From Escherichia coli (GTDB lineage: Bacteria > Pseudomonadota > Gammaproteobacteria > Enterobacterales > Enterobacteriaceae): DNA of 64,000 bases. The position numbers and the translations under genes were made by a program. The stretch lies in the NCBI RefSeq assembly GCF_024223415.1, contig NZ_CP100500.1; one strand, given 5' to 3'. Shown piece after piece: positions 22,548 to 24,982 of the stretch. The notes beneath the pieces are model-generated. The model saw only the letters and a list, made by a program, of their open reading frames with translations, was not told the origin of the DNA and searched no databases. Numbering within the stretch: position 1 is the first letter of the stretch; each line of letters starts with the position of its first letter.

Positions 22548-24212
22548 TTAAAACGTTTCCCAGTTCTCCCCGCTATCTGCCACGGCCATTTTACGCAGCG
22601 CAGCTGGCGTCACGGTTTTTACCACAGCCGATGTTTCACGCTGCTGTTGCTGCTGTTGCTGAATCCGGAACACTGCCACAGCTTCGGTCAGGCGACTGGC
22701 CTGCTCTTCCAGCGCGGCGGCGGCGGCGGCAGATTCTTCCACCAGCGCGGCGTTCTGTTGAGTTACCCGGTCCATCTCAGCAACCGCTAAGCCAACCTGA
22801 TCGATACCACGGCTCTGCTCATCAGAAGCAGAAGCTATTTCGCCCATAATGTCCGTCACGCGGGTCACGGCACTGACAATCTCCGCCATTGTTTCCCCGG
22901 CGCTTTCGACCAGCGTAGAGCCAACATCCACTTTCCCCACCGAGTCTTCAATCAGGCTTTTAATTTCACGAGCCGCCTGGGCGCTACGCTGGGCCAGATT
23001 ACGCACTTCTCCCGCAACCACCGCAAAACCACGTCCTTGCTCACCCGCACGCGCTGCTTCAACCGCCGCGTTCAAAGCCAGAATATTGGTCTGGAAGGCA
23101 ATGCCGTCAATTACACTGATAATATCGGCGATTTTCTGCGAACTGGTGGAGATATCACGCATAGTCTGCACCACGTTATCTACCACTTTGCCGCCGCGTT
23201 GCGCCGTTTCAGAAGCACTTAATGCCAGATGGCTGGCCTGGCGCGCATTCTCGGCGTTCTGTTTCACCGTTGCGGTCAGTTGCTCCATGCTGGCTGCCGT
23301 CTCTTCCAGCGAAGCGGCCTGTTGCTCGGTGCGCGAAGAGAGATCGTTATTACCGGTAGCGATTTCGCTGGCACCGCTATAGATGGCATTGGCCCCGTTG
23401 CGCACATCACCGACGGTACGCATCAGTTCTCCCTGCATATGGCGCAAACTCTCTGCCAGTTGCCCCATCTCATTAGAGCCATCCACCTCAATCGGTTTCA
23501 CCAGATCGCCGCCTGCAATATGACGAATGCTGTCAATCAGGCGATTCATTGGCGCTACCAGCGAGGCTTTAATACCGAACCAGACGGCGAAGATGACCGC
23601 CAGTACGACGATCATCACGCCCACCAGAATCCACATCGCCTGGCTGTAGGAGGCATTGTTATCGCTGACGGCGATATCATAGAGCCGATCGTTTTGCTCC
23701 ATGTAAGCCACATACTGCTTCTCGAAACCGTCCTGATATCCCTGGGTCGGCTGATCAAAGAACTCGTTGATTTTGCCTGCACCTAACAGTTGGATCAGCT
23801 CCGCCAGCGCATTGTGATAAATATCGTAATTACGTTTGATCTCTGCCGCTGCGGCGGTGCTCTGACGCGGGTCACGCGGCAACGCTTCGTAATCCGCCCA
23901 GTTTTTTTCCGCCTGTTTCAGCGAAATACTGGCACTCCGCATCAGCTCAGCAACGGTTGAACCGCTACCAATATTATTCTGATCCATCATGTAGCGGATA
24001 CCCGCGCGGTTGAGGGTGTTACGCGTCTGCAACAACGCGACCCAGCTGCCATTCAGCGTGGATTGCTGCTGACGAATGGTTTGTAAAACAGTGAAATTTT
24101 CTTTGTCATTCTTTAAGGCATTAAAGAACAGACCGCCTGATGTCAGTTGTAAAAGGCCAAAAACGGCCAAAACCAGCAGTAAGCTGGTCACGATCTTGAT
24201 ACGTTTTAACAT
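22548..24212 (-). CDS. tsr: Methyl-accepting chemotaxis protein I (serine receptor)
   Basis: 554-aa MCP with HAMP domain, methylation helices and C-terminal NWETF pentapeptide; poly-Gln linker of 7 Q. Confidence 0.95.
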
Positions 24213-24439: not shown

Positions 24440-24982
24440 ATGTTAAACCGTGACTTCGATCATCTCTCAACGCTATTACATCTCTTTTTTGAACGTGAGG
24501 ATATTTGCCAAAAGCTTAATATTATTGACCAAAACAATATCACCGGTTGGGAAGTGTGGTTCCAGGTAGAGTTTGCTAATATGCTCTGCTCAACAGACCA
24601 TGAATGGTGGCGTGAACAAGCACTTTCCTGTGATATGCGCAAAAAACCTGAGCGCCCGACACTACGCACAGATTTCTTACTACGTAAAAAAGGCTGGGCA
24701 CAAGATAGCTATATCGCGCTTGAAATAAAACAAAACAGAGACGCGACCAGTTGTGTTAAAAATATGATCGCAGACTTAGAAAAAAGCGCAAAAATAAAAC
24801 GTTCCGAACTCGATTTACGCAGTTTCTGGACCTTGGGTATCACCCCTATGATAGACAGGGAAAGGCTGGACTCTCTCATCGATTGCTATTTAGATGAGAA
24901 ATTTTATCTTACTAAATCTCGTAAAAAACACGTTTTACTTAAAGAAATAAATAACACACCATATTGCTATATTGTTATTTAA
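24440..24982 (+). CDS. Hypothetical protein, AT-rich orphan ORF (180 aa) with possible PD-(D/E)xK-like motif
   Basis: ATG preceded by aagaaagga; markedly AT-rich versus flanking core genes; residues ...RTDFLL...IALEIKQ... resemble a D...ExK nuclease core; no family recognised. Confidence 0.4.
   Translation: MLNRDFDHLSTLLHLFFEREDICQKLNIIDQNNITGWEVWFQVEFANMLCSTDHEWWREQALSCDMRKKPERPTLRTDFLLRKKGWAQDSYIALEIKQNRDATSCVKNMIADLEKSAKIKRSELDLRSFWTLGITPMIDRERLDSLIDCYLDEKFYLTKSRKKHVLLKEINNTPYCYIVI

Follow-up and report, generated by a model that had tools for sequence, protein, structure and literature searches.

The serine chemoreceptor gene tsr of Escherichia coli carries a perfect 9-bp tandem repeat in the part of its sequence that encodes the flexible C-terminal tether of the receptor. 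Strains differ in this repeat by whole units. In the window studied here, by which we mean the whole 64-kb stretch of E. coli DNA that was analysed, two units and a final CAG encode seven glutamines. Our preferred reading, to which we assign a probability of roughly 0.75, is that the window carries the common, two-copy form of a repeat whose copy number has changed recurrently by slippage, that the seven-codon length is ancestral, and that the differences in length have a small and nearly neutral effect.

The gene itself is well known, and the seven-glutamine allele is already annotated in thousands of genomes. Nearly all quantitative work on Tsr uses the K-12 protein, with a tether of 30 residues, whereas about three-quarters of sequenced E. 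coli have 33. The tails of related genera are equivalent in length to the seven-glutamine form. K-12 is thus atypical for E. coli in its tether length, a fact that matters slightly for models of chemotaxis.

The tsr gene and its locus

The features of the window on which the analysis turns are the following.

22548..24212, minus strand: tsr, encoding the serine chemoreceptor MCP-I, 554 aa and a stop codon (ORF translation)
22551..22565, minus strand: C-terminal NWETF pentapeptide (translation; function from PMC7390727, PMC10561060 and PMC4692393)
22566..22664, minus strand: flexible C-terminal tether of 33 residues, Ile517-Glu549 (I517 taken as its first residue, after PMC10561060)
22641..22661, minus strand: perfect 9-bp tandem repeat, (CAGCAACAG)x2 + CAG, Gln518-Gln524 (sequence, Tandem Repeats Finder and strain comparison)

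The 1,665-nt open reading frame encodes a protein with the architecture of Tsr orthologues: a Tar-type four-helix periplasmic ligand-binding domain, a HAMP domain and an MCP signalling domain (Pfam TarH, 1.7e-54; HAMP, 2e-12; MCPsignal, 2.7e-62). The DNA of the window gene matches the tsr annotated in E. coli SCU-316 without a difference (100% identity), and 5,385 of 5,426 complete genomes of E. coli have an annotated tsr with 97-100% nucleotide identity to it. The gene order btsT-tsr-lgoT is that of K-12, as expected of an orthologue of K-12 tsr; lgoT lies on one side and btsT on the other, with a 180-aa unannotated ORF between btsT and tsr. The protein ends in ...SGENWETF. A Tsr orthologue should bear NWETF at the end of a non-conserved tail some 30-35 residues long, and here there are 33 from I517 to the pentapeptide. 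By domains, identity, position and tail, the window gene is the Tsr/MCP-I orthologue.

A perfect 9-bp repeat in the tether

Read along the coding strand from 22661 to 22641, the tract consists of CAG CAA CAG CAG CAA CAG CAG, seven glutamines at residues 518-524. TTC CGG ATT (FRI) precedes it and CGT GAA ACA TCG (RETS) follows. A sequence-only reading of the window had reported seven glutamines at 22620-22665 in a 554-aa ORF; the tract is there, with its exact limits inside that interval. Tandem Repeats Finder describes 22640-22661 as period 9, 2.4 copies and 100% match. Perfect head-to-tail units of this length exceed chance: the window contains one perfect period-9 repeat of at least 21 nt, this tract, where 200 first-order Markov simulations lead one to expect 0.005. 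What we see in the window is the two-copy allele of an in-frame repeat that occurs elsewhere in one, two or three copies.

Could the length of the tract be an artefact of sequencing or assembly in a low-complexity region? Some technologies can miscall short repeats. Yet any read is far longer than 21 nt, the length and the sequence of the tract recur unchanged in about 4,056 independent complete genomes, and lengths step only in whole 9-bp units. Seven glutamines are also present in a cloned construct, the Af1503 HAMP-Tsr fusion of PDB 3ZX6 (the K-12 form is found in PDB 6S1K). We give an artefact practically no credence. The tract is real, non-random and an ordinary in-frame repeat polymorphism.

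The majority allele of E. coli

The alleles were counted by BLAST, with allele-specific queries, in 5,426 complete genomes of E. coli; 5,382 of these contain the region. Megablast queries of 117 and 90 nt split their alignments at the repeat into two perfect pieces, which made the identity bands unusable. Queries of 51-69 nt run with blastn were adopted; with these, coverage and identity jointly separate the length classes. The shares below count genomes and not independent lineages, and they are biased by over-sequenced clones, the four-glutamine class being swollen by laboratory K-12 and B derivatives:

Perfect 7 Gln: about 4,056 genomes (75%)
4 Gln: about 1,170-1,215 genomes (23%)
10 Gln, three units: about 72 genomes (1.3%)
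Interrupted QQEQQRQ, same length as 7 Gln: about 40 genomes (0.7%)

A 108-nt seven-glutamine query divided the records into 4,059 that reach at least 95% identity with no difference in length and 1,323 that carry a 9-nt gap and stay below that threshold. A 51-nt query gave 4,100 records at 95% or more, 39 at 90-95% and 1,243 at 80-90%; 44 of the 4,100 matches are partial, and the one of these that was checked is a four-glutamine allele with a SNP in the flank. For the three-unit allele a 60-nt query found 72 full-length matches at 95% or more, the number left when the 3,610 records of the 80-90% band are taken from the 3,682 that are well covered. A cross-check gave 68, and at least 60 records are listed individually, including LF82, NRG857C and HS.

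Strains differ, then, by whole units, and the only other class has the same length as the two-copy form. The 39 records at 90-95% identity might have been alleles three nucleotides longer or shorter; they are instead the interrupted allele, CAG CAA GAG CAG CAA CGC CAG (QQEQQRQ), carried by ETEC O6:H16 strains among others. There is thus no sign of +/-3-nt alleles (5, 6 or 8 Gln) in the BLAST census of 5,382 genomes. Among the best matches listed there are no alleles with 1 or 13 glutamines, and the 40 genomes with the interrupted allele contain no length variants of it.

Seven glutamines are found in O157:H7, O111, O121, E. coli C, ATCC 8739 and Nissle-type strains; ten are found in the LF82/NRG857C lineage, HS and mouse-gut isolates. 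Hosts are mixed within the listed records of each allele. The seven-glutamine form is the majority allele of E. coli and no peculiarity of the window strain.

Comparison with K-12

The sequence-only reading gave K-12 Tsr four glutamines and 551 residues, and this was correct. A K-12 MG1655 derivative reads CAG CAA CAG CAG, a single unit giving 4 Gln and 551 aa, and the source of the 551-aa protein calls it MCP1_ECOLI. The 9-nt-shorter match was obtained in K-12 MG1655, C600, RV308 and BL21(DE3). One 9-bp in-frame unit is therefore the exact difference between window and K-12 (7 against 4 Gln, 554 against 551 aa, a tether of 33 against 30 residues), and the possibility that K-12 and all other strains share seven glutamines did not materialize.

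In other respects the two proteins are the same gene product at the same btsT-tsr-lgoT locus, with the same TarH-HAMP-MCPsignal domains and the same NWETF end. Window and K-12-derivative Tsr share 99% protein identity; besides the repeat the window protein has E92R, H178Y, P536L and E545G, the last two being residues 539 and 548 in its own numbering. The repeat count, the unit, the frame and the location had all been read rightly from the sequence: the tract lies at residues 518-524, just after I517, in the tether that presents NWETF. What finds no support is the view of the tract as an allele peculiar to the window strain, which about 75% of the 5,382 genomes and PDB 3ZX6 contradict, and as a duplication relative to K-12, for which the direction is probably reversed (see below). 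It is the K-12 form that is the minority allele, with about 23% of E. coli genomes.

Recurrent change in copy number

Full reading of 14 tsr alleles shows one form of the tract throughout, exactly (CAGCAACAG)n+CAG, with n equal to 1, 2 or 3 (4, 7 or 10 Gln). Near-identical alleles differ in n: EE72d (7 Gln) and BEN2908 (4 Gln) are 2 nt apart in 1,656. A common 3' haplotype unites O157 F8797 (7 Gln) with ET350 (10 Gln), and another unites MS1657 (4 Gln) with LF82/GmF052 (10 Gln). The K-12-type, O157-type and REAS-type tail haplotypes each occur with four and with seven glutamines. Across the 14 alleles and the proteins of the 90% identity cluster, four glutamines appear on at least six tail haplotypes, and 2013C-4282 has four on a very divergent tsr allele. 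Near-identical alleles and several haplotypes that carry different copy numbers indicate that the copy number has changed many times. The only alternative to recurrence is very short recombination tracts, and transfer of the tract in this way could inflate the number of apparently independent events.

Which length is ancestral?

For outgroups we scanned species-representative genomes with a degenerate DNA pattern for (E/Q)AVAVFRI. Most of the listed matches are chance occurrences in GC-rich genomes; about 25 of the matches listed are usable enterobacterial loci, and through these 18 taxa contributed a Tsr orthologue. Citrobacter, Enterobacter, Leclercia, Lelliottia, Kluyvera, Pluralibacter, Pseudescherichia and Superficieibacter are among them; the set is without E. 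albertii, E. fergusonii, E. marmotae, Shigella and Salmonella. In the 18 taxa, among the matches listed, the Tsr tail after FRI is 36-39 residues long, with a mode of 37. The corresponding E. coli tails have 37 residues with seven glutamines, 34 in K-12, which is below the outgroup range, and 40 with ten, which is above it.

The outgroup orthologues also show an imperfect three-codon periodicity at the position of the tract, for example QQE-QQK-A. The closest outgroup among those obtained, L130, is labelled E. coli, but at 87.6% nucleotide identity its species is uncertain; it has QQAQQRQ, again seven codons. Within E. coli the divergent allele of EC42405 has QQEQQRQ, also seven codons. We infer the polarity from these distant outgroups and from the closer L130. 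Outgroup tail lengths, seven-codon interrupted forms, the wide distribution of seven glutamines, the scatter of four and an asymmetry in slippage, described below, together argue for a seven-codon ancestor and recurrent 9-bp deletions to the K-12 form. This is the best reading of the sequences, and we regard it as very probable.

The reverse polarity would make four glutamines, as in K-12, ancestral and give the window lineage a 9-bp in-frame duplication and with it a longer tether, as the sequence-only reading supposed. Both units read CAG CAA CAG, without a difference even at synonymous positions, as a young duplication would predict, and expansion does happen, since ten-glutamine alleles exist. 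A four-glutamine intermediate also lies on one of the two routes from the interrupted QQEQQRQ to the perfect tract. That route comprises a deletion, a point change and a re-duplication; the other comprises three point mutations; at three events each they are equally parsimonious. Against a duplication stand the presence of seven glutamines in about 75% of genomes, from O157:H7, O111 and O121 to E. coli C and ATCC 8739, and the tail length of this form, which is the mode of the 18 outgroup taxa where the four-glutamine length is outside their range. Seven codons are also found in the interrupted tracts of the outgroup L130 and of the divergent EC42405 allele. Finally, four glutamines on at least six haplotypes would need many identical duplications, each from only 3 nt of homology. 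We consider it unlikely that the window allele arose by duplication from a K-12-like ancestor.

How would a seven-codon ancestor have given rise to the present alleles? In our proposal, the older state was the imperfect motif QQx-QQx-Q, of which the outgroup forms and the interrupted allele in about 0.7% of E. coli would be survivors. Conversion of this motif into a perfect repeat would have made its length unstable, with replication slippage between perfect direct repeats changing the copy number by 9 bp. Contraction from seven glutamines to four should be easy, as it can draw on 12 nt of register-shifted identity; re-expansion from four to seven should be harder, with only 3 nt of identity left. 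The four-glutamine form of K-12 would then be the product of a recurrent 9-bp deletion from seven ancestral codons. That the seven-glutamine allele stands at 75% despite so easy a route to deletion could reflect purifying selection.

Tether length and its expected effect

Conservation of the Tsr sequence ends with residue 517 (PMC4692393). The chain beyond it presents NWETF to CheR and CheB (PMC7390727, PMC4692393). Counted from I517, the tether of K-12 Tsr is 30 residues long, against 34 for that of Tar, and is treated as disordered (PMC10561060); direct EPR evidence for the disorder comes from Tar (PMC7390727, PMC10561060). By allele, the Tsr tether measures 30 residues with four glutamines, as in K-12, 33 with seven and 36 with ten. 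It has been argued that the tether of Tsr is shorter than the 34 residues of Tar because the methylation sites of Tsr lie nearer to the tether point (PMC10561060). The common allele, with 33 residues, almost equals Tar, so that this argument is specific to K-12.

In Tar constructs with tethers of 22, 29, 34 and 46 residues, the fitted position of CheR shifts linearly by 0.128 +/- 0.048 nm per residue; tether length alters the precision of adaptation, and the contour length is 0.36 nm per residue (PMC10561060). Each unit of the tsr repeat would lengthen the disordered chain by three uncharged residues, a contour of about 1.1 nm, and would modestly shift the reach of CheR and CheB-P, which the tether keeps close to the methylation sites by way of NWETF. 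As the added residues are uncharged, the charge pattern noted for such linkers is unchanged. By extrapolation of Tar-fitted parameters, which derive from constructs differing by 5-12 residues where the Tsr steps are of 3, the density of CheR at the methylation sites of Tsr would be reduced by about 25% or less with seven glutamines relative to four, and by about 45% or less with ten. Natural pentapeptide tethers span 29-91 residues, and K-12, with four glutamines, is the fully chemotactic reference strain. On these grounds the functional effect of copy number is expected to be small. With so small a consequence the polymorphism is probably nearly neutral or weakly selected, and the narrow 36-39-residue range of the orthologues, together with the persistence of the seven-glutamine form, may leave room for weak selection.

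A stronger role for selection can be envisaged. The copy-number alleles might differ in function and be kept by selection: tether length would tune the reach of CheR and CheB, and so the rate and precision of adaptation to serine or AI-2, with optima that differ between niches. Such a view agrees with our preferred explanation on the structure of the polymorphism and departs from it only on neutrality. It can point to Tar, where tether length shifts the position of CheR and changes the precision of adaptation (PMC10561060), to the confinement of orthologue tails to 36-39 residues, which suggests constraint, to the persistence of seven glutamines as the majority form despite the easy path to deletion, and to the occurrence of ten in the LF82/NRG857C lineage, HS and mouse-gut isolates. 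But steps of three residues are small beside the 5-12 residues of the Tar series, and the extrapolated effect of one step is about 25% or less; natural tethers vary far more widely, from 29 to 91 residues; K-12 is fully chemotactic with four glutamines; and the hosts are mixed for each allele. We find selective maintenance of the alleles doubtful. The sharper proposal that the repeat is a selected dial on tether length, with seven glutamines optimal for most E. coli and four or ten measurably altering the speed and precision of adaptation to serine or AI-2, seems to us decidedly unlikely. If it were true, chemotaxis would be specific to lineage or niche, and the reference parameters of K-12 would be unrepresentative of E. 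coli.

The glutamines might instead have a structural role, extending the C-terminal helix of the four-helix bundle or mediating Gln-Gln contacts between receptors, so that copy number would alter bundle stability or array packing and not the reach of the tether. The tract follows directly on the last conserved residues of the helix, F515-R516-I517; a glutamine-rich QQxQQ motif is kept in the orthologues, which hints at a constraint on composition; and poly-glutamine next to coiled coils can be helical. The literature, however, treats the chain from I517 as unstructured, with the direct EPR evidence coming from Tar (PMC7390727, PMC10561060), and three tract lengths coexist in nature. A structural role is in our judgement highly improbable.

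Related systems

Judged by its sequence, the tsr tract is an in-frame tandem-repeat polymorphism. It resembles coding polymorphisms of the VNTR type in its perfect short units, in variation among strains by whole units and in its recurrence on different backgrounds; it differs from a typical VNTR in its very low copy number (1-3) and in a mutation rate that is presumably modest. With phase-variable contingency loci it shares slippage at a simple repeat inside a sensing or surface gene. The 9-bp unit, however, keeps the frame, so that length changes and not an on/off state. All tsr alleles are in frame, as intact ORFs of 551, 554 or 557 aa, and the repeat is therefore no contingency locus.

Eukaryotic genes carry CAG poly-glutamine tracts interrupted by CAA. 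The tsr tract is like these in its mixture of CAG and CAA, by which the slipping unit is not a single triplet. It is much shorter and bacterial, and it lies in a tether and not in an aggregation-prone domain. The analogy extends to mutational behaviour only. A functional or aggregation-prone poly-glutamine domain would have tens of glutamines; here there are 4-10, in what the literature describes as a disordered tether.

A functional parallel exists in engineered Tar. The natural Tsr alleles and the Tar variants of 22, 29, 34 and 46 residues (PMC10561060) both change nothing but how long the disordered stretch from helix to NWETF is. The Tar variants are artificial and differ by steps of 5-12 residues or more, whereas the Tsr variation is natural and proceeds in pure-glutamine steps of three residues at the helix-proximal end. 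The natural series of 4, 7 and 10 glutamines (30, 33 and 36 residues) offers a minimally invasive set of lengths for models of tethered enzymes. Li and Hazelbauer are said to have made receptor linker truncations in 2006 that are comparable as tether-length variants. Neither the seven-glutamine tail string nor a description of the polymorphism was found in the searchable literature, outside which most subscription journals lie.

A second repeat in tsr

The same gene contains another in-frame microsatellite upstream of the glutamine tract.

22713..22730, minus strand: (GCC/GCG)6, Ala495-Ala500, in the methylation helix (Tandem Repeats Finder, period 3, 5.7 copies)

In other strains this poly-alanine repeat is polymorphic, with A4, A6 and A8 forms; the protein P0006 has A8. 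The 552-aa Tsr of TUM14664 could be taken from its length for a five-glutamine allele. Its sequence has seven glutamines, and a 6-bp deletion in the poly-alanine repeat, giving A4, accounts for the shorter protein.

Substitutions in the tether and at its root

The Tsr protein encoded here differs from other alleles within the tether itself, the flexible C-terminal chain that presents the NWETF peptide to CheR and CheB.

22596-22598, minus strand: Leu at codon 539 of tsr, where other alleles have Pro

At this mid-tether residue the Tsr of the window reads PAALRK, as against PAAPRK or PATPRK elsewhere. The exact 554-residue protein found no match in a collection of 15 billion proteins; despite this, DNA identical to the tsr of the window is present in strain SCU-316. 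Another substitution lies at the root of the tether, in the tsr of EE72d (locus L012), where codon 516 specifies Leu in place of the conserved Arg516, giving FLI rather than FRI. Position 516 of Tsr is the tethering point in PMC10561060.

A second microsatellite in tsr

Besides the Gln tract, tsr carries another in-frame microsatellite, (GCC/GCG)6, which encodes a run of six alanines.

22713-22730, minus strand: (GCC/GCG)6, Ala6, codons 495-500 of tsr

The run falls between E493 and E502, both known methylation sites of Tsr. Its length varies among strains in steps of 6 bp: TUM14664 has Ala4 in an allele that is otherwise the same as that of Seattle 1946, and Ala8 occurs in a protein of 556 residues found on five contigs. 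The gain or loss of two residues within the helical bundle should, we predict, shift the heptad register, and such a change may impair the receptor.

Gene content around tsr

The surroundings of tsr were compared among genomes downstream (loci L004, L005, L008, L011, L012, L013 and L136) and upstream (L007 and L135). In some strains, genes for TRAP-transporter permeases replace lgoT on the downstream side; in some, a MurR/RpiR regulator replaces btsT or a 180-residue ORF on the upstream side. Given these differences from strain to strain, tsr lies where stretches of variable gene content meet.

24440-24982, plus strand: ORF of 180 aa between tsr and btsT

This ORF is annotated in SCU-316 as a hypothetical protein (WP_000934391.1), and comparison with Pfam and NCBIfam returned no match to it. 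A K-12 derivative is without it, and there the gap between btsT and tsr is only 377 bp.

The outgroup locus L130, NZ_JAATUR010000013.1, comes from a species-representative genome labelled E. coli SCPM-O-B-8794. The 3' half of its tsr shares only 87.6% identity with E. coli tsr alleles, and its Tsr has a distinct tail, QQAQQRQHEALPVV...; this genome may represent a mislabelled or divergent Escherichia lineage.

A pentapeptide-repeat protein elsewhere in the window

46122-48491, plus strand: pentapeptide-repeat protein of 789 aa (Pfam Pentapeptide, 2.3e-35)
46486-46530, plus strand: (KD)7 within this protein, a 45-nt DNA repeat of period 6

The protein shows a weak, sub-threshold resemblance to models of the type III effectors PipB, PipB2 and SopA. 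Several tandem repeats lie within it: besides (KD)7, IPGTHK is repeated about four times and an NDSTEKQA-like unit about ten times. Its gene is probably a further one of variable length.
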